DNA of 8,190 bases, from IMG/VR virus record IMGVR_UViG_2609459797_000006; one strand, given 5' to 3'. Of the stretch, positions 253 through 8,190 are shown in pieces. The position numbers and the translations under genes were made by a program. A model generated the notes under the pieces. It had not been told where the DNA came from. It worked only from the letters and a program-made list of their open reading frames with translations, and did not search any database. Origin of the DNA: a virus. Its lineage: Duplodnaviria; Heunggongvirae; Uroviricota; Caudoviricetes. The stretch's first letter is position 1. Each line of letters begins with the position of its first letter.

Positions 253-278
253 CACCTTTTAAAAGAAAAACCCTTTAA

Positions 279-380
279 AGGTGAACAGGTGAATACTTGG
301 TGAACACTTCAATAAAAAGTGTTCACCCCTTAACTATCTGTTAAATAGACGATTTTATCCACGGTGAATAGTGGTGAACA
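279..380. repeat. Iteron-like cluster: six copies of GGTGAAYA / TGTTCACC in both orientations, including a perfect 11-bp inverted repeat GGTGAACACTT-N7-AAGTGTTCACC (299-327); candidate crr/ori-type binding sites for the adjacent helicase/primase
   Basis: Seen directly: GGTGAACA 280-287, GGTGAATA 288-295, GGTGAACA 299-306, TGTTCACC 320-327, GGTGAATA 363-370, GGTGAACA 373-380. From memory, phage P4 ori and crr carry TGTTCACC type I iterons bound by the alpha protein. Confidence 0.6.
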
Positions 381-389
381 CTTTTCCCA

Positions 390-2159
390 TTACTTTTGAT
401 TTTCTCCACTGTTATGAGATGTATCATTCCACATAGGCATCCAGTCTTCTGAGTCGTCGTGAAGCGTGACGTTTGACCTTATGCCATGTTTTGTTTTGCG
501 CTTCTGGTACTCCTTGCCATATTCAGCCATTGCGCCTGGCATATCCGTACCGAACCTCATCAGCGATACCGGCTTGCTCAGACCATTAGCCCGCATATAA
601 GCCAGATAAGCGTGATACAGATAACGGCGCGGGCTGAATGGCACGATCTCGGCATTGCCAATCAGCATTCCATCACAAACCACCGAAGCCATCAGGTAGC
701 CGCAAAAGTCCACCAGTGAATCCCCTTCACGTTTGATGGCCAGCGCTTCTTCTGATTTCTGCTGCTCATGCAAAAGCTGTTTGGCTTCGTCCTGCCTGGA
801 AAAGCGAGTGAGCAGGTGGCGAATGATTACAGCCAGCTCACCTTCAATCTTCTCGGCCAGCATAGGATCGCGTTCGTTTTCCGGTACCACTTCGGAGAAG
901 TTGAAAATCACCCGCCGTCTGGAAACCCCCCCGCTTCTGTCGCTGAACGACATGGCATTGTTATTGACGGCAAGCACCACCGCTGGAATACGGGTTGAAT
1001 ATGGCGCTTTGTGTTTAGGGTCAATGGCTACCTTATCCCCGCCAGTGATAGCTTTAATCCCTGCGCCGTCGCCAGCGTACCGGGTCATATCCGGCATGAT
1101 AATCAGCGAATAGCCCACTACCAGCGCCCTTTCCCTTGGGTTCTCCAGCGCCGCCATGCTCGCTGATACGGTGTTGGCCTTGCCCGCCAGCATCGTGCAG
1201 ATCTCAGCCATAACACTTTTACCACTTCCGCCCGGCCCCGTTACCTCAAGAAACAGCTGCCAGTCGTACCGGTTCGCCAGCACCATAAACAGCGCAGACA
1301 GTACGCGGTCTGCTTTTCGGTCATTATCCGCCACTGAGCGGCGGAGCCATTTCCAGAAGTTCGGCGCATGGGTTGCCAGAGTCTCTCCTTCTGCTGGTTC
1401 GCTGAATGGCAATTCGCTCGCAACGATAAGCCAGTCCTTTTTATCATGCGGTCGAAATTGGCCTAACCGGGTATCAAAAACCCCGTTGCTGAAACCAATA
1501 AGATTTCGGGCTGTATTACCCATCACTGGCAGACCCAGCTTCATTGTATCGACAGCGGATTTAATCGCGTTCTGCGAATAGGCGACTTCGGCATCAATAA
1601 AAATTTGCGCCATTTCCCGCTGTAGCTCTTTATCCGAAAGCGGAACCCACACCACGCCGTTGTAATGATGAACCGTGTCAGAATCAGCATGGATCGCCAG
1701 ATTGCCATCGTAATGAGCAAGCAGAACCTCCCCGCGCTGGCTGGCTCCCATCTGGTTAAGCGCTGGCGTAGCACTACCCCTCGTAGTCACCATTAGGGGC
1801 TCGTCTTCCAAACGCTTCATTAATGGCGTCCAGTCCTCTTTCTCACCTTTTTCGTTGATAAACTCAGCATTGGTAACGCCAGCCTCACACAGCTTATTTG
1901 CAATCATGCTGATTTGGTTTTGCTCGATAAGTCCGGCCTGACAGACACGAGCAAACCGACGGCCTTTATCAACAATGCGCAGGTGTGGCAATTCCGCCAG
2001 TTGGGTGTGATCCAGAACCACAGGTGGAACATCGTCTCCATGCTCGCCCTTGCCTTTCTGGTAATCCTGAGCGGCTTTCCATGCTCCCGTTCCAGCAAAG
2101 ATGATGGCCTCCTCCATTTTGTCGCGCGGGAGGGTTTTCACATTAGGCGCGTTTTTCAT
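390..2159 (-). CDS. P4 alpha-type replication protein (D5_N-like region plus SF3 helicase; phage/plasmid primase P4-family C-terminal domain), 589 aa
   Basis: Long ORF with Walker A motif VTGPGGSGKS, Walker B-like hydrophobic stretch ending in D (SLIIMPD) and overall resemblance to P4 alpha / poxvirus D5-type helicases. ATG start at 2157-2159 preceded by a GGGGG Shine-Dalgarno-like run. The iteron cluster lies just downstream. Family assignment from motif recognition only. Confidence 0.8.
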   Translation of the reverse strand: MKNAPNVKTLPRDKMEEAIIFAGTGAWKAAQDYQKGKGEHGDDVPPVVLDHTQLAELPHLRIVDKGRRFARVCQAGLIEQNQISMIANKLCEAGVTNAEFINEKGEKEDWTPLMKRLEDEPLMVTTRGSATPALNQMGASQRGEVLLAHYDGNLAIHADSDTVHHYNGVVWVPLSDKELQREMAQIFIDAEVAYSQNAIKSAVDTMKLGLPVMGNTARNLIGFSNGVFDTRLGQFRPHDKKDWLIVASELPFSEPAEGETLATHAPNFWKWLRRSVADNDRKADRVLSALFMVLANRYDWQLFLEVTGPGGSGKSVMAEICTMLAGKANTVSASMAALENPRERALVVGYSLIIMPDMTRYAGDGAGIKAITGGDKVAIDPKHKAPYSTRIPAVVLAVNNNAMSFSDRSGGVSRRRVIFNFSEVVPENERDPMLAEKIEGELAVIIRHLLTRFSRQDEAKQLLHEQQKSEEALAIKREGDSLVDFCGYLMASVVCDGMLIGNAEIVPFSPRRYLYHAYLAYMRANGLSKPVSLMRFGTDMPGAMAEYGKEYQKRKTKHGIRSNVTLHDDSEDWMPMWNDTSHNSGENQK

Positions 2160-2334
2160 CTTTCAGCCCCCAGCTAACGAAAGTGAACTCTTTAACGAAC
2201 CTTTCCAGCGGAAAGATGCACGGAAAATCGTAACCATCACGCACAAACGTTACCCGGTTAAATGCGTTATCTTTCACCGTGACCAGTTCGCCGCGCTTAT
2301 CCTTCCAGCTATCGTTGATTTCAGGATTTCGCAC
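2143..2334 (-). CDS. Small hypothetical protein (63 aa), GTG start, overlaps both neighbours
   Basis: GTG at 2332-2334 preceded by GGAGG at 6-nt spacing; overlaps the upstream ORF by 14 nt and the helicase start by 17 nt (TAA 2143-2145). No family recognised. Could also be an overlap artefact. Confidence 0.4.
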   Translation of the reverse strand: MRNPEINDSWKDKRGELVTVKDNAFNRVTFVRDGYDFPCIFPLERFVKEFTFVSWGLKDEKRA

Positions 2335-2536
2335 TGTAAGCCTCCCGCGCCTTCACCAGCTCGCCGATAGATTTGTGCAGCAGAGACATAATTGCTCCGA
2401 CACGGCACGCTTCCTCACGGTGTTCTTCACCGTCGGGAATGCTGTCAATCCACATGCTCAGCACAGACATTGCGCACTCACTTTCTGAAAGGGCATTTTC
2501 AGCGTGCATCAGGACTTCAAAAGGAACCTGTCTCAC
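2321..2536 (-). CDS. Small hypothetical protein (71 aa), GTG start overlapping the upstream stop (GTGA)
   Basis: GTG at 2534-2536 preceded by GGAGAG; the stop TGA of the upstream 64-aa ORF overlaps this start, indicating translational coupling. Acidic, Cys/His-containing sequence; no family recognised. Confidence 0.5.
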   Translation of the reverse strand: MRQVPFEVLMHAENALSESECAMSVLSMWIDSIPDGEEHREEACRVGAIMSLLHKSIGELVKAREAYSAKS

Positions 2537-2727
2537 TTTGTCTCTCCCATGTGCAGCTCGGCGATTAATGCCCGGTGAATTTCCTGATTAAAATCACACG
2601 CAATAGAAATCAGATTCAGCAGCGTTTCTGAACATTCAGCAGAGGCTTTTTCCAGGATGGTTTCGTAAAGTGATGAAGCCAGCGCTGATTTATATTCGGC
2701 CTGCTCCAGACAGATTGGCTCACGCAT
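2533..2727 (-). CDS. Small hypothetical protein (64 aa)
   Basis: ATG at 2725-2727 preceded by a strong AGGAGG Shine-Dalgarno at ~6 nt; the start overlaps the stop of the upstream ORF (ATGCGTGA). No family recognised. Confidence 0.6.
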
Positions 2728-2911
2728 AGCGAACCTCCTGAACTGGTAGACGGCCAGCGCATACCATCACGCAGCCAGCCGGTGATTGCTCACGGGCTTC
2801 GCGCTCAGTGTTAGCTGTGATGTGAATGACGTTGCGACCGATGGCGCTCAGTGCAAGAAAACGCCAGATGTAGGACTTCCGCCCTTGCGGGTGTGTGATA
2901 TGATCTTTCAT
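2720..2911 (-). CDS. Small hypothetical protein (63 aa; [18 protein letters not shown]...), first gene of the minus-strand operon leading to the helicase/primase
   Basis: Chosen start is the ATG at 2909-2911 with GAGG 6-9 nt upstream. The listed 324-aa ORF (2720-3694) extends this frame upstream across the opposite-strand RHH gene and looks spurious there. An alternative ATG at 2996-2998 lacks a Shine-Dalgarno. Confidence 0.45.
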
Positions 2912-2999
2912 AGCTGCCTCGTTACTTTCGCTAACGGTGGTGGTTAGAGGCCCGGTTAGTGTTCCACCACTGCCGGGCTTTGCTTTACTAAAAGTCATG

Positions 3000-3057
3000 C
3001 AATGTAGTACATTGTCAACTCCACTACAGACTAGACCACAGGAGTTGACAATGTCAA
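3000..3057. promoter_or_regulatory. Divergent promoter/operator region with nested palindromes built on TTGACA/TGTCAA half-sites
   Basis: Seen directly: perfect 15-bp palindrome CAATGTAGTACATTG (3000-3014); perfect 13-bp inverted repeat CATTGTCAACTCC (3010-3022) / GGAGTTGACAATG (3041-3053) with an 18-bp spacer; palindrome TTGACA-A-TGTCAA (3045-3057) spanning the RHH start codon. Lies between divergent genes. Confidence 0.55.
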
Positions 3058-3224
3058 CAAGCGAAAATAAAGAGCGCCATGTTGTGCAGCTCAGACTCGA
3101 TAAAGAACTGTCAGAGCGGCTCGCTTTAGCGATGAAAGAAGACGGTGACGATAATAAGTCGGGATGGATAAAACGCCTTTTGCGCCGTGAACTTGATAAG
3201 CGCGGCATCGAGCCAAAAGGCTGA
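3051..3224 (+). CDS. Small ribbon-helix-helix (CopG/Arc/Mnt-like) DNA-binding protein, 57 aa; candidate repressor of the divergent replication operon
   Basis: ATG at 3051 preceded by AGGAG (3042-3046). Sequence [50 protein letters not shown] has a beta-strand-then-two-helices layout typical of RHH proteins. Fold inferred from sequence pattern only. Confidence 0.55.
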
Positions 3225-3543
3225 ACAGGGTTACTCCCCGTAATGCTGTGGACTGCCCCTCTTAAAAAGGGTCTGTTTTGCGCAACTATTAATGAGTTGT
3301 GCAGAGGCTCCCCTCTTAAAGAGGGTTGGTTATCTTCGCAGCTCTCTACGTTTTTCGTCGGAGCCTCTAAACCACGTTTAACGTTGTTTTGCCATGAACC
3401 CGAATACTGTTCGCCTTTGTCTCGATCTCCGTACGTTAAACGTACGCGGTTAATTTGTGCGTACGGATTTCGTCGGCTCAAGGTTTGACCACCAGCGGCA
3501 AGCCTGGTAATCTGGCGATGTTTCTGTAAAGCGGTATTGCACT

Positions 3544-3571
3544 GGCGGCCCGGCATGGCCGCCTTTGTTTT
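3544..3571 (+). terminator. Rho-independent terminator on the plus strand (GGCGGCC-CGGCAT-GGCCGCC followed by TTTGTTTT)
   Basis: Perfect 7-bp GC stem with 6-nt loop and T-rich tail, seen directly. Sits ~320 nt downstream of the RHH stop and just outside the 3' end of the convergent 230-aa gene. Confidence 0.55.
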
Positions 3572-3576
3572 GCCTG

Positions 3577-4269
3577 TCATACAATAGCCTCCACTTTCAG
3601 CCCGCCAGCGGTATACCCCTGAACCCGAACACCATCGACGCGATGACGCTTTTTCGTCAGAAAGCGGATGTGATCTGCGTAGACGTACTGCCATTTACCA
3701 TCGAGTGCCACACGTTTAAACCACGGATGAGGCTTAGATATGGTCTGGACAACTGGCGCGGAAGCCTTGCAGGGCGTGGGTTCTGCTGTGCATACCCCCT
3801 TATCGTTACCCGTTACTCTATACAGCCAGTAACTTGCCAGCTTCCCGGTCAATTTACGGGTGCGCACGGGGATATAACCCGCCTCACGCATCGCCTTACC
3901 AAAAGTGGCATCGTCCGGGTAATACTGGCGGCGTAGTTCCGTAGATACTGAAACGGCAAAGCTGCGTTTAGTCGGGTATTCCTGCCACTGGCCGACAAAT
4001 TCAAAAGGAAGACCATTAACCCTTCCTTTGGTCTTGTCCTTGCCGCTTATCCCTACATCATGGTCTGCCTCATGCACGGACACGCCGGAACGCAGCCACA
4101 CCAGCCCGTTACCGTTGTGGCGCAACCCCAGATCGGCAAGCGTAAATTCACCGCGATTAATGGGCGACCAGTCACCGGAAATAACCTGTTTACGGTTCGC
4201 TGAAATATCGTGCTGGCTGGCTACAGGGTGAGCGAATCCCTGCCCGTGGAGGGCATTAATCTTTTTCAT
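3577..4269 (-). CDS. Hypothetical protein, 230 aa, encoded immediately downstream of the AlpA-like gene
   Basis: Uninterrupted ORF with ATG start 20 nt downstream of the alpA-like stop. No catalytic motif recognised; family not assignable by eye. Confidence 0.65.
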
Positions 4270-4289
4270 CTCAGATTACCTGTGGTTAA

Positions 4290-4574
4290 TTAAGCAGATT
4301 TACGGCTGTATGGGTTATTGACGTTCTCTACTGCTGGCGGATTACGAACCCACCAGAGCACATCCGAAAGAAGCCAAGCACAGCTATTGCGGCCAAAGTG
4401 ACAGCGCGGAGGGAAGCGCCCCTGCTGCTCCATCTTCCAGCGGCTGGAACGGGAAAGACTGGTGATCTCGCTGCATTCATCTTCACGGATTCGGCGATCA
4501 AACTTAAAGCCGTACTCTTCTAAAAGGGTGCGGCGCTGTTCAGGATTTGGCGGGGTAAAGGTTATATTTTGCAT
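4290..4574 (-). CDS. AlpA/Vis-family phage regulatory protein (MerR-type HTH; transcriptional activator/excision regulator), 94 aa
   Basis: GGAGG Shine-Dalgarno 5-6 nt before the ATG at 4572-4574. Region ...SEITSLSRSSRWKMEQQGRFPPRCHFGRNSCAWLLSDVLWWVRN matches the AlpA pattern (LSRST-Y...G-FP....G...W...-V--W). The family includes E. coli CP4-57 AlpA and P4 Vis, recalled from memory. Confidence 0.75.
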   Translation of the reverse strand: MQNITFTPPNPEQRRTLLEEYGFKFDRRIREDECSEITSLSRSSRWKMEQQGRFPPRCHFGRNSCAWLLSDVLWWVRNPPAVENVNNPYSRKSA

Positions 4575-4623
4575 GCTGCCTCCACTGTTTCAATGTTATG
4601 CGAAGAGATTAGTGGATAAACGA

Positions 4624-4699
4624 CCAGAATTTCCATTGATTCTGGAATCCTTTAAAAGAACATGCAATTCCATTGAAAGATAGAAATTCCATCAAGATA
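4624..4699. promoter_or_regulatory. Repeat motifs upstream of the alpA-like gene: inverted repeat CCAGAAT-N8-ATTCTGG and three copies of TTCCATYRA
   Basis: Seen directly: CCAGAAT 4624-4630 / ATTCTGG 4639-4645; TTCCATTGA 4631-4639 and 4668-4676; TTCCATCAA 4691-4699. Lie 50-125 bp upstream of the alpA-like start. Function inferred. Confidence 0.35.
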
Positions 4700-4830
4700 A
4701 CGCTCCCCTGTTTAAAACAGTTTCCACAGTAATTTCAACGGCTGTCTCGAGAGAAAAAATCATGAATTTCAATAACTCGCCGAAGATCACCGTTCTTTAA
4801 CGATTTGATTCACCTTGGATTGTTCATAAC

Positions 4831-5030
4831 AAAGATGAACAATGATGAACGCTGATGAACAGTGATGAATAACCATGAACAAAGATGGAAAAAGTTAGCA
4901 AGTAATGACCTAGTAGGGACCGTGGATGGAGCTAGGTATTGTTAGGTGCTGTCGGGTGCCGTTACGTGTCATAACGTGTCATTACGTGTCGTTGAATGCT
5001 GTTGAATGCTGTTGAATGCTGTTGAATGTA
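4831..5030. repeat. Array of twenty phased 10-bp tandem repeat units in successive sub-families (ATGAAC-type x6, GGTGCT-type x3, TTACGTGTC x3, GTTGAATGCT x4), followed by very AT-rich DNA (5031-5164); candidate replication origin or protein-binding array
   Basis: Seen directly: 4831-4890 aaagatgaac/aatgatgaac/gctgatgaac/agtgatgaat/aaccatgaac/aaagatggaa; 4931-4960 gctaggtatt/gttaggtgct/gtcgggtgcc; 4961-4990 gttacgtgtc/ataacgtgtc/attacgtgtc; 4991-5030 gttgaatgct x3 then gttgaatgta. Strict 10-bp register throughout. No ORF present. Confidence 0.8.
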
Positions 5031-5164
5031 ACGGTAATACACATCAAATATAACAATTGAATCTCCTTGGCGATCATAGAATCGCCAAAAGCTCCAACAA
5101 ATATAATTAATTAGTATTTTCACATGAAATATAAATAATACCTACTAACACTGCAAAATAATAT

Positions 5165-5815
5165 TCATTCCGTATAATAAATCGAATTTAATGCCTTTCG
5201 AATTTTCTCATATATTGCTGATTTAGATAATCCAGTTTTAGATATACCTTCCTCATCAGCTAATTTATATAGTTCGTTTAAAATAGCCGAGATGCTTGGT
5301 TTTTTAGAGGTGCCAAACGAATGGCCTATCTTATGTGCTATAAGCTTGACCAGCATCCCCATTAATTTATCATTATATTCCTTTTCATCTTCTTTACGAT
5401 GCAAGCCGCGTTTGCTGCTTTTCAATGCAATTCCGACCTGTAAAAGCTCATCCCCTCCCATAGCATAAAGATGCTCTTTTCCTTTGTTTTGATTAGCAAT
5501 TATAGCCACCGCCGCAAGGCATCTGTCCTTTATGGGTTGTGGTGTAATATCTTCATCAATAAGAGGATATGCCAGAGCAAACATATAGTCTGCGGGATAG
5601 GCTGTTGAGTTTCCACCTCGAAATAATTTAGATGCTGATAACCATCTACTCAGTTGTCGATAGTATATATTGTAAGCTTCAACTTTCGCTTCAGGGATAT
5701 CAGCAGTTTTAACTGTCGGATCTACCCCACACATAAGTAGTGCAAGTTGTTTAATATTTAGCTCCGGGGCTTTGGCTTCTCGCTCGAAAATACCCAATTT
5801 TAGAAAACTAGTCAT
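5165..5815 (-). CDS. Hypothetical protein, 216 aa, AT-rich, translationally coupled to the integrase (TAATG overlap); possible C-terminal HTH
   Basis: ATG at 5813-5815 overlaps the integrase stop TAA (5815-5817). Base composition visibly more AT-rich than flanking genes. C-terminal segment ISKTGLSKSAIYEKIRKA resembles a helix-turn-helix. No known family recognised. Confidence 0.7.
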   Translation of the reverse strand: MTSFLKLGIFEREAKAPELNIKQLALLMCGVDPTVKTADIPEAKVEAYNIYYRQLSRWLSASKLFRGGNSTAYPADYMFALAYPLIDEDITPQPIKDRCLAAVAIIANQNKGKEHLYAMGGDELLQVGIALKSSKRGLHRKEDEKEYNDKLMGMLVKLIAHKIGHSFGTSKKPSISAILNELYKLADEEGISKTGLSKSAIYEKIRKALNSIYYTE

Positions 5816-7035
5816 TATTCAGCCTTATTCAACAAAACAATGTTAGTGAATCCACCTGATAAAATATCAAGTCTGTCATACCATTTATTCAACGCATCCA
5901 GTTTCTCAGGCAAGTACAGACTACGGTTATAAATCGCCATGACTCCCGGCATTGAGTGCCCCAGCAACTGTTCGACAACGTGTGGTGCTATACCCATATT
6001 ATTCATATGCGTTGCTAAAGTTCGTCTTAGATCGTGCAGTGTCCATGGTTCAGAATGCCCTAGCTTTTTATAAACGCCGCGGCCCCACTGACTTACCGCT
6101 TCACTGCCTTTAACCGACCCAAGCAAAAGGCCGGATCGTTTCGTTTCATCATGCAGTATTTCAATGAATTTGCGCATGGCATCCGGCACAGGTCTTACAA
6201 TCTTCTCGCCACCCTTGCTGTGCTCTTTGGGAACTGTCCAGACCCAGGCATCCATATCCCATTCACTCCACTCTGATAGCCTGGCCTCCTGCGTTCGGCA
6301 CCCAAACACTATTAAGATTGTCAGTAGCCTGGTGTAGTAAGGCATGAAGCAAGTGCCAGAGGAAATGGCAGCCCATAAATCGCCAGCCTCTTTATCGTTT
6401 AATACCCGGTCTTTTTTTGCCTGTTTTTTACCGACATCTGGAATTGTTAAATCTTCAAGCGCGGTACTCACAGCATAGCGACGAACCCGGCAGAATTTCA
6501 GGGCTTGTTTGCACATCTGGAACACATAACCTGCGGCGACTGGAGTTTTCTTTTTCATCCTGTCAAAGCAGTCAAGCCAGTATCGTGTTTCACAGTCAGC
6601 GAGCGCCATTTTCCCTATATAAGGATAAATGTGTTTTCGCAGCTCCGCTTTGTGCCGTTCAACATTCGCGCGGTTCTCTTCTGCATATTCGCGTATCCAG
6701 TATTCTATAGCTTCCTTAACAGTGACCGGTTTAAGGGTTTCCTGAGTAGTCAACGCCAACTGGTGCTTTGGATCTTTACCTGAGGCCAGCCACTGGCGGC
6801 ATTTATCACGCGATGAACGGGCTTCTTTGAGGCTCATATCCGGGTATCGTCCCAGAGTCAGACGATGCAGCTTCTGCCCGTCAAGTCGGTAAGTAAACAC
6901 CCAGCTAATACCACCAGCTTTAGTTACCTTGGCGCTCAGCCCGGCACCATCAGCATAGAACTCAATCTTACTGGCCGGGATACCATGTAATCCCTTTAAC
7001 TTCCTGTCGCTCAGTTTGTTAAGTTCCCCAGCCAT
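5815..7035 (-). CDS. int: P4-type tyrosine integrase (site-specific recombinase), 406 aa
   Basis: N-terminal segment (SDRKLKGL...KIEFYADGAGLSAKVTKAGGISWVFTYRLDGQKLHRLTLGRYPDMSLKEAR) matches the P4-integrase arm-binding domain pattern. C-terminal region carries HDLRRT (His-x-x-Arg) and GHSMPGVMAIYNRS (catalytic Tyr). ATG at 7033-7035. Confidence 0.9.
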   Translation of the reverse strand: MAGELNKLSDRKLKGLHGIPASKIEFYADGAGLSAKVTKAGGISWVFTYRLDGQKLHRLTLGRYPDMSLKEARSSRDKCRQWLASGKDPKHQLALTTQETLKPVTVKEAIEYWIREYAEENRANVERHKAELRKHIYPYIGKMALADCETRYWLDCFDRMKKKTPVAAGYVFQMCKQALKFCRVRRYAVSTALEDLTIPDVGKKQAKKDRVLNDKEAGDLWAAISSGTCFMPYYTRLLTILIVFGCRTQEARLSEWSEWDMDAWVWTVPKEHSKGGEKIVRPVPDAMRKFIEILHDETKRSGLLLGSVKGSEAVSQWGRGVYKKLGHSEPWTLHDLRRTLATHMNNMGIAPHVVEQLLGHSMPGVMAIYNRSLYLPEKLDALNKWYDRLDILSGGFTNIVLLNKAE

Positions 7036-7053
7036 AGACCACCCAGCCCAAAG

Positions 7054-7142
7054 TGTTTATACAAATGTTTATACAGAATTGCTTGCATAATAGCATAAAC
7101 AAAGAAAAACACTGGAACAATATACAGGCATGAATTTATACA
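7054..7142. promoter_or_regulatory. Integrase upstream region with direct repeats TGTTTATACA (7054-7063, 7066-7075) plus TATACAG (7121-7127) and TTTATACA (7135-7142); candidate int promoter elements and/or arm-type Int-binding sites
   Basis: Repeats seen directly. On the minus strand they read TGTATAAAC, resembling extended -10 elements 20-40 bp upstream of the int start. Their position between int and the element end is where P4-type arm sites are expected. Function inferred. Confidence 0.4.
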
Positions 7143-7205
7143 ACGCATTGATTATTATATGAATATTAAAATCATCTAAAAGCATGAAAACAGCTAATAT
7201 GACAG

Positions 7206-7220
7206 TACGGCATGAACTAA
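7206..7220 (+). other. fis: Displaced 3' end of fis (TACGGCATGAACTAA = Y-G-M-N-stop) marking the element/chromosome junction (att core region)
   Basis: The 15-mer encodes the Fis C-terminus and is followed by the native fis terminator and yhdJ. Immediately upstream the frame hits an in-frame TGA (7200-7202) and unrelated AT-rich sequence, so homology to fis stops here. Recalled fis/yhdJ locus, not searched. Confidence 0.5.
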
Positions 7221-7249
7221 TTCAGGTTAGCTAAATGCTTGATTAAAAA

Positions 7250-7281
7250 GGCGCTACTCGGCATGGGGAAGCGCCTTTTTT
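7250..7281 (+). terminator. Rho-independent terminator (GGCGCT...AGCGCC stem followed by TTTTTT), the fis terminator
   Basis: Stem GGCGCT 7250-7255 / AGCGCC 7270-7275 and T6 run 7276-7281, seen directly. Position matches the fis-yhdJ intergenic terminator as recalled. Confidence 0.7.
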
Positions 7282-7305
7282 ATAGGTGTCACAAAGGGAG
7301 TGACC

Positions 7306-8190
7306 ATGAGAACAGGATGTGAACCGACCCGGTTTGGTAATGAAGCTAAGACCATTATTCACGGTGATGCCCTTGCCGAACTTAAAAAGCTACCTACTGA
7401 AAGCGTCGATCTGATCTTTGCCGACCCACCGTATAACATCGGTAAAAATTTTGATGGTCTGATCGAAGCCTGGAAAGAAGATCTGTTTATCGACTGGCTG
7501 TTTGAAGTGATTGCAGAGTGCCACCGCGTTCTGAAAAAGCAGGGCAGCATGTACATTATGAACAGTACGGAAAACATGCCCTTTATCGATCTCCAGTGCC
7601 GCAAGCTTTTTACCATCAAAAGTCGCATCGTCTGGTCATATGACAGTTCTGGAGTACAGGCGAAAAAACACTACGGCTCCATGTACGAACCCATCCTGAT
7701 GATGGTGAAAGACGCAAAGAACTACACATTCAACGGTGATGCTATTCTGGTAGAAGCCAAAACCGGATCGCAGCGCGCGTTGATCGATTATCGCAAAAAT
7801 CCTCCACAGCCATACAATCATCAAAAAGTACCGGGTAACGTCTGGGATTTTCCGCGCGTGCGTTATTTAATGGATGAATATGAGAACCACCCGACGCAAA
7901 AACCGGAAGCCTTACTGAAACGCATTATTCTCGCCTCTTCCAACCCAGGCGATATCGTTCTCGACCCGTTTGCCGGTAGCTTTACTACCGGTGCCGTAGC
8001 CATCGCCAGCGGACGAAAATTCATTGGTATTGAGATCAACAGCGAGTACATCAAAATGGGGCTTCGACGGCTGGATGTCGCGTCGCATTACTCCGCGGAA
8101 GAACTGGCGAAAGTGAAAAAAAGAAAGACGGGCAACCGGTCAAAACGATGCCGGGTTAGCGAAGTTGACCCCGATCTCATTGCAAAGTAA
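7306..8190 (+). CDS. yhdJ: DNA adenine (N6) methyltransferase YhdJ, 294 aa
   Basis: Sequence MRTGCEPTRFGNEAKTIIHGDALAELKK...DLIFADPPYNIGKNF...LDPFAGSFTTG recognised as E. coli YhdJ, with DPPY catalytic motif and SAM-binding motif in beta-class order. ATG at 7306 with AGGGAG Shine-Dalgarno preferred over the GTG at 7300 listed in the ORF track; TAA at 8188-8190. Confidence 0.85.
   Translation: MRTGCEPTRFGNEAKTIIHGDALAELKKLPTESVDLIFADPPYNIGKNFDGLIEAWKEDLFIDWLFEVIAECHRVLKKQGSMYIMNSTENMPFIDLQCRKLFTIKSRIVWSYDSSGVQAKKHYGSMYEPILMMVKDAKNYTFNGDAILVEAKTGSQRALIDYRKNPPQPYNHQKVPGNVWDFPRVRYLMDEYENHPTQKPEALLKRIILASSNPGDIVLDPFAGSFTTGAVAIASGRKFIGIEINSEYIKMGLRRLDVASHYSAEELAKVKKRKTGNRSKRCRVSEVDPDLIAK

Follow-up and report, generated by a model that had tools for sequence, protein, structure and literature searches.

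The window, by which we mean the whole stretch of 8,190 nucleotides analyzed, ends on its right in chromosomal DNA and carries satellite genes in the opposite orientation to the left of it. The segment of main concern, 7036–7281, lies between the start of a tyrosine integrase gene and yhdJ. The genes and junction features, with their Pfam and PHROG matches, are as follows.

390–2159, minus strand: primase/helicase (pri-rep) gene; Pfam D5_N, DUF5906 and Pox_D5; PHROG_864 DNA primase, 5.5e-153
4290–4574, minus strand: alpA-family regulator/excisionase gene; Pfam Phage_AlpA (PF05930), 5.3e-10; PHROG_2790 'excisionase and transcriptional regulator', 1.5e-39
5165–5815, minus strand: open reading frame of 216 aa, PHROG_30524 (function unknown), overlapping the int stop codon by 1 nt (TAATG)
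5815–7035, minus strand: tyrosine integrase gene, 406 aa; Pfam Arm-DNA-bind_3 (5.5e-19), Phage_integrase (5.2e-18) and Phage_int_M; PHROG_1, 3.9e-71
7036–7205, plus strand: P arm of attR, element-derived; 30% GC versus 47.8% for the whole window; missing from empty fis–yhdJ loci
7206–7218, plus strand: att core TACGGCATGAACT, the block identical in attL, attR, attB and attP
7206–7220, plus strand: orphan 3' end of fis (YGMN and stop), the 15 nt left at attR; under fis annotation in more than 5,400 genomes
7245–7280, plus strand: native rho-independent terminator of fis, a hairpin and T-run; −19.7 kcal/mol, z = −5.2; the same as the empty-site sequence
from 7300 or 7306 to 8190, plus strand: yhdJ, adenine DNA methyltransferase, chromosomal flank; Pfam N6_N4_Mtase, 2.5e-64; annotated as yhdJ in all matched genomes

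The junction with the chromosome falls within the last codons of fis. Positions 7200–7220 read TGA CAG TAC GGC ATG AAC TAA, which translates as stop-QYGMN-stop, and the in-frame TGA at 7200 closes the fis frame upstream of the remnant. That TGA was considered as a conserved feature and rejected; it is missing in other clades and is therefore incidental. When 6900–7500 was used as a megablast query against 5,426 complete E. coli genomes, 5,424 were matched, and in all but 19 of these the match started at query base 307, which is window position 7206, with fis and yhdJ annotated there. This position begins TAC, the first of the last five fis codons, and homology to the uninterrupted fis–yhdJ locus starts with it. 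The converse query consisted of fis and the first 300 bp of yhdJ from an empty site. By that search, fis and yhdJ are contiguous, making an empty attB, in 5,309 of the 5,426 genomes and non-contiguous in 117 (2.2%). The empty site reads ...AAATTGAAAAAA/TACGGCATGAACTAATTC..., versus ...GCTAATATGACAG/TACGGCATGAACTAATTC... in the window, with identity from 7206 onward. The chromosomal flank is 100% identical to the native locus, and that excludes a chance resemblance. When attB, attL and attR are aligned together, the breakpoint falls at 7205/7206. The notion that there is no junction at all, the DNA upstream of 7206 being normal E. coli sequence and the end of fis wrongly placed, is dismissed, since no supporting point was found for it and the 5,309 genomes with contiguous fis and yhdJ read ...AAATTGAAAAAA before TACGGCATGAAC, not ...TAATATGACAG.

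The initial annotation, made from the sequence alone, had described this segment as the last 15 nt of fis followed by the native fis terminator and yhdJ, with AT-rich, repeat-bearing element DNA upstream and an integrase start about 170 bp away. That description was accurate throughout: the translation and the upstream TGA are as described, the terminator hairpin and the annotated yhdJ follow, the P arm is as AT-rich as its GC content indicates and contains two copies of TGTTTATACA, and int starts with an ATG at 7035, at a distance of 171 bp from 7206. It had also proposed a comparison with an uninterrupted fis–yhdJ locus, in which a shared sequence upstream would mean that no junction exists; the upstream sequences proved different. 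The promoter/terminator consensus scan of 6900–7400 missed the fis terminator, which has an interrupted stem, and folding was used instead. In the same interval, the promoter scan gave a single weak site on the int strand (7180–7151) that scored no better than shuffles. Searched against Rfam at gathering thresholds, the whole window gave zero matches, and thus neither a tRNA or sRNA target nor a P4-type regulatory RNA.

The far end of such an element can be read in relatives. E. coli OW1E2 (NZ_CP067245) matches window 253–8190 at 97.6% and has an island of ~16 kb between an intact fis and yhdJ. The fis protein there, WP_000462905.1, is the same accession as at the empty sites. The end of the gene reads ...TACGGCATGAACT/GATAC..., followed by a terminator copy, and the attL as a whole reads fis...AAAAAATACGGCATGAACT/GATACATTTCAGC..AAAAAGGCGCTACTCGGCATGGGGATGCGCCTTTTTTAT/TATTGTTTATACAGATGTTTATACAGC. 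The stop codon of fis at attL is a TGA supplied by the element, and termination falls to a near-copy of the fis terminator carried by the element, with a folding energy of −17.5 kcal/mol. This is the arrangement that had been predicted, an intact fis at the other end reading into element DNA, as seen in a relative. The predicted second copy of the core was likewise found, in the attL of three relatives (L001, L020 and L027) in which attL and attR are both present. In the E. coli EA2 island (L027), attL and attR share ~78 bp, through the terminator, and the P' side is completely adapted. The fis tail on the P' side of the element (TGATAC...) matches the Klebsiella/Enterobacter fis end, not the E. 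coli version with TAA.

The block common to attL and attR is TACGGCATGAACT, 13 bp, and in the alignments the flanking bases differ on both sides; therefore, both strand exchanges for this pairing must fall inside TACGGCATGAACT. The core had initially been said to take in the fis stop codon. That part stands for the family, with its published consensus TACGGCATGAACTAA (PMC10111431), with which the core agrees, but in this E. coli pair the block takes in only the T of the stop codon. The exact core is found 165–198 bp from the int start in 19 loci of other genera, and Proteus mirabilis (L022) has a core with one mismatch, TACGGCATGAATT, at 267 bp. Around the core, a search for inverted-repeat core-type sites found only 4-bp arms (CAGT/ACTG) in this clade, not kept in other clades, and for this reason the exact overlap region of 6–8 bp is left unassigned.

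The joined attP is present in packaged DNA. A protein search of a phage collection found LR881103.1 ('phage vB_KppS-Ant', 16.5 kb; L028, 1–16548), in which the P arm, the core, GATACC..., the terminator copy and GTGTTTATACATATGTTTATACAC follow each other without interruption. Window 7036–7218 is identical to this attP at 182 of 183 positions, and the nucleotide identity to LR881103.1 is 97.4% over the int-to-alpA region and 93.5% over the primase region. We provisionally identify this record with the island KpCIDSM30104 on the basis of two papers naming the same strain, together with K. pneumoniae ATCC 13883, which we take to be the same type strain as DSM 30104. A lysate on K. pneumoniae DSM 30104 was the source of LR881103.1, which is >99% identical to the host genome (PMC8006926). 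KpCIDSM30104 is induced by a resident helper phage, is packaged in its own small capsids, and enters E. coli when HK022 tails are supplied (bioRxiv 10.1101/2025.02.11.637232). The evidence for recombination at this core comes from relatives and from empty sites, and consists of the joined attP in virion-derived LR881103.1, the empty attB in 5,309 genomes and the published excision experiment (PMC10111431).

Two entries about this record call for comment. In its paper, vB_KppS-Ant is described as a filamentous/ssDNA induced prophage (PMC8006926). Judged by its gene content and its attP, it is a cf-PICI, and it is misclassified in phage databases. The second entry is a 765-aa frame labelled 'tail length tape measure protein' (2036–4333 of L028), which lies in the accessory position behind terL and should be annotated anew.

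The integrase has the P4-type layout, with an N-terminal Arm-DNA-bind_3 (DUF4102) domain, a SAM-like/central domain and a catalytic domain. This domain set, together with the junction at the last fis codons, bears out the original proposal of a P4-type integrase aimed at the 3' end of fis. Candidate catalytic motifs, assigned by analogy, are GCRTQE (245; R247), HDLRRT (334; H334/R337) and AIYNRS (367; Y369). Its amino acid sequence recurs without change (100% identity) in K. pneumoniae ATCC 13883 and Enterobacter hormaechei; identity is 99.5% to the LR881103.1 integrase and 46–47% to the integrases carrying the published HE-PICI arm motif. The E. hormaechei and K. pneumoniae copies (L003 and L004) also have P arms nearly identical to that of the window, which has an E. 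coli flank. Identical integrases in three genera are consistent with the reported inter-generic spread of cf-PICIs.

The 216-aa frame that overlaps int sits where 'iolg' does in Vibrio PICMI115 (PMC10803314), a likeness in position. The E. coli EA2 island has a different int-overlapping frame, with an overlap of 4 nt. Directly downstream of the primase gene, at 280–381, is a cluster of GGTGAAYA iterons, five direct and one inverted, which is probably the replication origin of the satellite.

The left end of the window is the right end of an IS1. Positions 1–252 contain the 3' part of insB and the terminal inverted repeat ...AAGTTGGAGTCATTACC. The IS1 adjoins the iteron cluster just beyond the primase, where relatives carry capsid and terminase genes, and that half of the element falls outside the window. 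Among complete E. coli genomes, the exact IS1 junction of the window has no match. The state of this particular copy is the matter on which a rival reading has some weight. It accepts the junction as real and takes the copy to be a decayed, immobile remnant in which an IS1 insertion or deletion removed or separated the packaging module or attL and left a fossil island next to yhdJ. The position of the IS1, directly where relatives continue with capsid genes, speaks for it, as do IS1-linked decay at this site elsewhere, for example in E. coli 58-3, and the mixed states of the ~2% of complete genomes in which fis and yhdJ are non-contiguous. The integrase frame and the attR arm are nonetheless intact: int is full-length, its product matches that of an experimentally mobile island at 100%, a single position in P arm plus core differs from a functional attP, and a simple IS1 insertion (strains TUM9754 and DETEC-P61) need remove nothing. 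On balance, we regard the remnant reading as rather unlikely, though it deserves to be taken seriously. In E. coli 58-3 (L026, NZ_CP050036), positions 20283–23100 hold an attL with a TGACTGCAC/TGACTACAC P' arm, one DUF6602 gene and an IS1, and a deletion after the IS1 takes yhdJ through acrF.

The class of the element follows from its gene content and that of its relatives. In the OW1E2 island, the annotated genes are int, the 216-aa frame, an alpA-type HTH regulator, an Icd-like gene, DUF4222, a primase and the major capsid protein, and then the late genes for an HK97-type protease, portal, head closure, head–tail connector, HNH, TerS and TerL. Neither tail nor lysis genes are annotated in this island. 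The attR at 7206–7220 has, at the fis terminus, the identity block TACGGCATGAACT(A/G)A that bounds fis PICIs; AlpA (PF05930) is encoded at 4290–4574; and the full-length relatives L001 and L027 have no annotated tail genes. Of the cf-PICI gene set, int, alpA and primase are in the window, and the late components are annotated in L001, L027 and L028. We therefore read 7036–7281 as the attR, or right-hand junction, of a phage-inducible chromosomal island, one of the published class of 'fis PICI' and close kin of the capsid-forming PICI (cf-PICI) KpCIDSM30104, and assign this reading a probability of about 0.93. Taken as a whole, the element belongs to the fis PICIs and probably to the cf-PICIs, with KpCIDSM30104 as a relative. 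The initial annotation had named neither a phage satellite nor the fis end as a published target.

A small temperate prophage or a P4-like satellite, instead of a PICI or cf-PICI, is a very improbable identity for this element. The integrase is of the P4 type, the primase has a D5_N domain like P4 alpha, an Icd-like gene is annotated in relatives, and LR881103.1 was deposited as a 'phage' with one frame labelled tape measure protein. Against these points, the relatives are 15–16 kb long and have capsid, portal, protease, connector, HNH and TerS/TerL genes and no tail, baseplate or lysis genes, which fits the cfPICI gene set as defined for SatelliteFinder (PMC10085698). AlpA is the PICI signature in the survey that found it in practically all fis islands, and among its 3,565 islands there was no prophage at this site (PMC10111431). 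The P4-like satellite in particular was rejected because its hijacking genes are not annotated in the relatives: psu-, sid-, delta-, epsilon- or cnr/cI-like products are absent from the annotation of the full-length relatives, which encode their own capsid and terminase instead.

The P arm contains several further elements.

7054–7075, plus strand: TGTTTATACA-aa-TGTTTATACA, putative arm-type integrase sites; the sole two copies in the window, at 7054 and 7066, 12 bp apart
7107–7127, plus strand: conserved box AAACACTGGAACAATATACAG; kept in 13 loci, from Klebsiella to Proteus/Xenorhabdus, whatever the arm motif
7141–7153, plus strand: IHF-consensus match YAANNNNTTGATW by regular expression, a putative bending site; its TTGATT core is kept in group-I P arms

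The doubled motif belongs to both arms. For the full element L001, 40.6 kb contain just four exact copies of TGTTTATACA, which share one orientation and are confined to the arms. They form two tandem pairs, one 147.5 bp from the core center toward int and the other 85.5 bp away in the opposite direction, directly after the terminator copy, a geometry close to that of HE-PICIs. We surveyed 20 loci from other genera, with integrases 64–100% identical, and a doubled motif adjoins int in all 20. Its sequence varies by clade, and we list it here with that of the EA2 island.

TGTTTATACA: L003–L009 and L011–L013
GTACCCCAC: L010 and L022
ATTACCCCAC: L014, L016 and L017
GACTACAC: L015, L018, L019 and L021
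GTGATACAC: L020
TGACTGCAC: L027 (E. coli EA2)

Wherever both are readable, the P and P' motifs are the same: TGTTTATACA in L001 and L028, GTGATACAC in L020 and TGACTGCAC in L027. The motif co-varies with the arm domain of the integrase. Over residues 1–95, all TGTTTATACA loci have 73% or more identity to the window integrase, none of the other loci exceeds 64%, and this split holds regardless of the identity of the catalytic domain or the rest of the integrase. The following loci show it (identity in the arm domain, middle and catalytic domain, in that order).

L012/L013: 79%, 70–71% and 61%; motif TGTTTATACA
L010: 61%, 90% and 75%; motif GTACCCCAC

In L023 and L024, which have integrases 46–47% identical and no fis core nearby, two copies of TTGCAATAC are at the same int-proximal place. 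This is the reverse complement of the published HE-PICI motif.

The pattern, seen over 22 loci, looks as expected of arm-type sites co-evolving with a swappable arm domain. On these sequence comparisons, the arm domain of the integrase most likely uses the TGTTTATACA pairs in both arms as its arm-type sites, although AlpA or another protein could bind the doubled motif instead of Int. A broader proposal is that fis PICI integrases generally have doubled arm-type sites, ~148 bp from the core toward int and ~86 bp from it in the other direction, which would have been switched repeatedly along with the arm domain while the core stayed fixed; we lean toward it, with only modest confidence. The doubled motif reported for HE-PICIs, tgTGTATTGCantgTGTATTGCa, is 81 and 132 bp from the core, and was not found in fis PICI attPs (PMC10111431). 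A literature text search for TGTTTATACA returned only unrelated primer and enhancer matches, and no paper with the motif in this context.

Other repeated sequences accompany the arms. The conserved box AAACACTGGAACAATATACAG has as candidate roles those of an int promoter or an accessory-protein site. The heptamer GCATGAA occurs at 7128–7134, 7182–7188 and 7210–7216. The last of these copies belongs to the core; the others lie in the P arm, 82 and 28 bp left of it. The nearer P-arm copy (AGCATGA) is kept in most related P arms, and these P-arm copies could be extra core-type or accessory sites. The sequence YYAGTTCAT, the reverse complement of core ATGAACTRR, is 5–40 bp upstream of int in L010, L014–L022 and L027 and is absent in the clade of the window. 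It may be a core-type site for autoregulation. In two Xenorhabdus loci (L014 and L016), with their own arm motif ATTACCCCAC, the chromosomal side has a terminator and two or three TGTTTATACA-type repeats ~85 bp past the core. Tandem PICIs were considered for these loci and rejected, the downstream genes being metabolic (KAS III, epimerase and MBL). More probably, the TGTTTATACA-type P' arm was left behind by a previous occupant of the fis site, from another clade.

These observations suggest how the element would enter and leave the chromosome. The integrase would recombine the attP core TACGGCATGAACT with the identical last codons of chromosomal fis. The attP core of 13–15 bp is identical to those codons, and to its right are a replacement stop codon and a copy of the fis terminator. 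Since attP brings the stop and the terminator copy, fis at attL still encodes the same protein and terminates after integration. The original fis tail, the terminator and yhdJ are displaced by ~16 kb to stand next to int, forming attR. The C-terminal domains of the integrase presumably bind and cut within the core, the N-terminal arm domain may bind the TGTTTATACA pairs, and a bending protein may help to build the intasome, for which an IHF-like site is present. AlpA (4290–4574), and perhaps the 216-aa product of the frame overlapping int, would direct excision on induction by a helper phage. An intact attL for this copy would read fis...TACGGCATGAACTGA, the terminator copy and two copies of TGTTTATACA, and the attB would read ...AAAAAATACGGCATGAACTAATTC.

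The finding is mainly of use for annotation, since it places attR with its core and putative arm sites and marks where the island ends and the chromosome begins. It is also a textbook-style case: a mobile element inserts at the last codons of an essential-like regulator gene and mends that gene with a tail and terminator of its own. The window carries a relative of KpCIDSM30104, whose transfer from Klebsiella to E. coli was demonstrated. The clade-specific doubled arm motif is the only piece that possibly adds to the literature. If it is what we propose, the fis PICIs would offer a natural series of specificity swaps between arm domain and arm site, and several islands might use one chromosomal site without cross-excision. 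The motif could then be of use in engineering attPs, or account for how islands that compete for the fis site are compatible.

The end of fis as a target site is already published and experimentally confirmed, and the finding here is correct and already known. The Williams laboratory counted 2,642 fis PICIs among Enterobacterales, and 3,565 fis islands when Proteobacteria as a whole were considered; their identity block is TACGGCATGAACTAA, and across the island the usual gene is yhdJ (NAR Genom Bioinform 2023; PMC10111431). An earlier experiment cited there showed that Kpn47.16.fis excises within TACGGCATGAACTGATAC in K. pneumoniae BAA-2146, and the attL string here is TACGGCATGAACTGATAC, the same as that excision block. 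The likeness to the published fis PICIs extends to the fis terminus with yhdJ across from it, the identity block TACGGCATGAACT with AA or GA, AlpA, and an attP whose replacement fis tail runs into a terminator. Nothing essential is different; what is seen here is a doubled motif, of another sequence than that of HE-PICIs, at similar positions.

Among individual islands, a close one is KpCIDSM30104, here equated with LR881103.1 and described by the Penades laboratory along with EcCIGN02175 and EcCIEDL933. The late module is the same in E. coli relatives. The integrase is 99.5–100% identical, and the P arm is identical (182/183 with the core). The copy in the window differs in being in an E. coli chromosome, so that its attR has the E. 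coli TAA tail, and in having an IS1 that abuts the replication module.

The PICMI satellites of Vibrionaceae integrate at the end of fis as well, and a gene overlapping int ('iolg' in PICMI115) is required for their excision (Nat Commun 2024; PMC10803314). By description, they share the fis end, the trio of int, alpA and primase, and the int-overlapping gene. They are unlike the present element in being ~6–7 kb, without capsid or packaging genes, in Vibrio, and in using virulent helper phages. Assignment of the element to the PICMIs was therefore rejected in spite of the same target and gene trio, since its relatives are 15–16 kb, have packaging genes and are in Enterobacterales.

The HE-PICI attP resembles that of the fis PICIs in having two co-oriented doubled motifs flanking the core, and the integrases are probably related, but the motif sequence is different (tgTGTATTGCantgTGTATTGCa), and the target is in prophage late genes rather than fis. 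Finally, integration at the 3' end of tRNA genes or icd by lambda- and P4-type integrases is alike in that attP replaces the 3' end of the target, whose function is thereby kept, and has arm-type sites and a core. The present case differs in its target, the last five codons of a protein gene together with its terminator.
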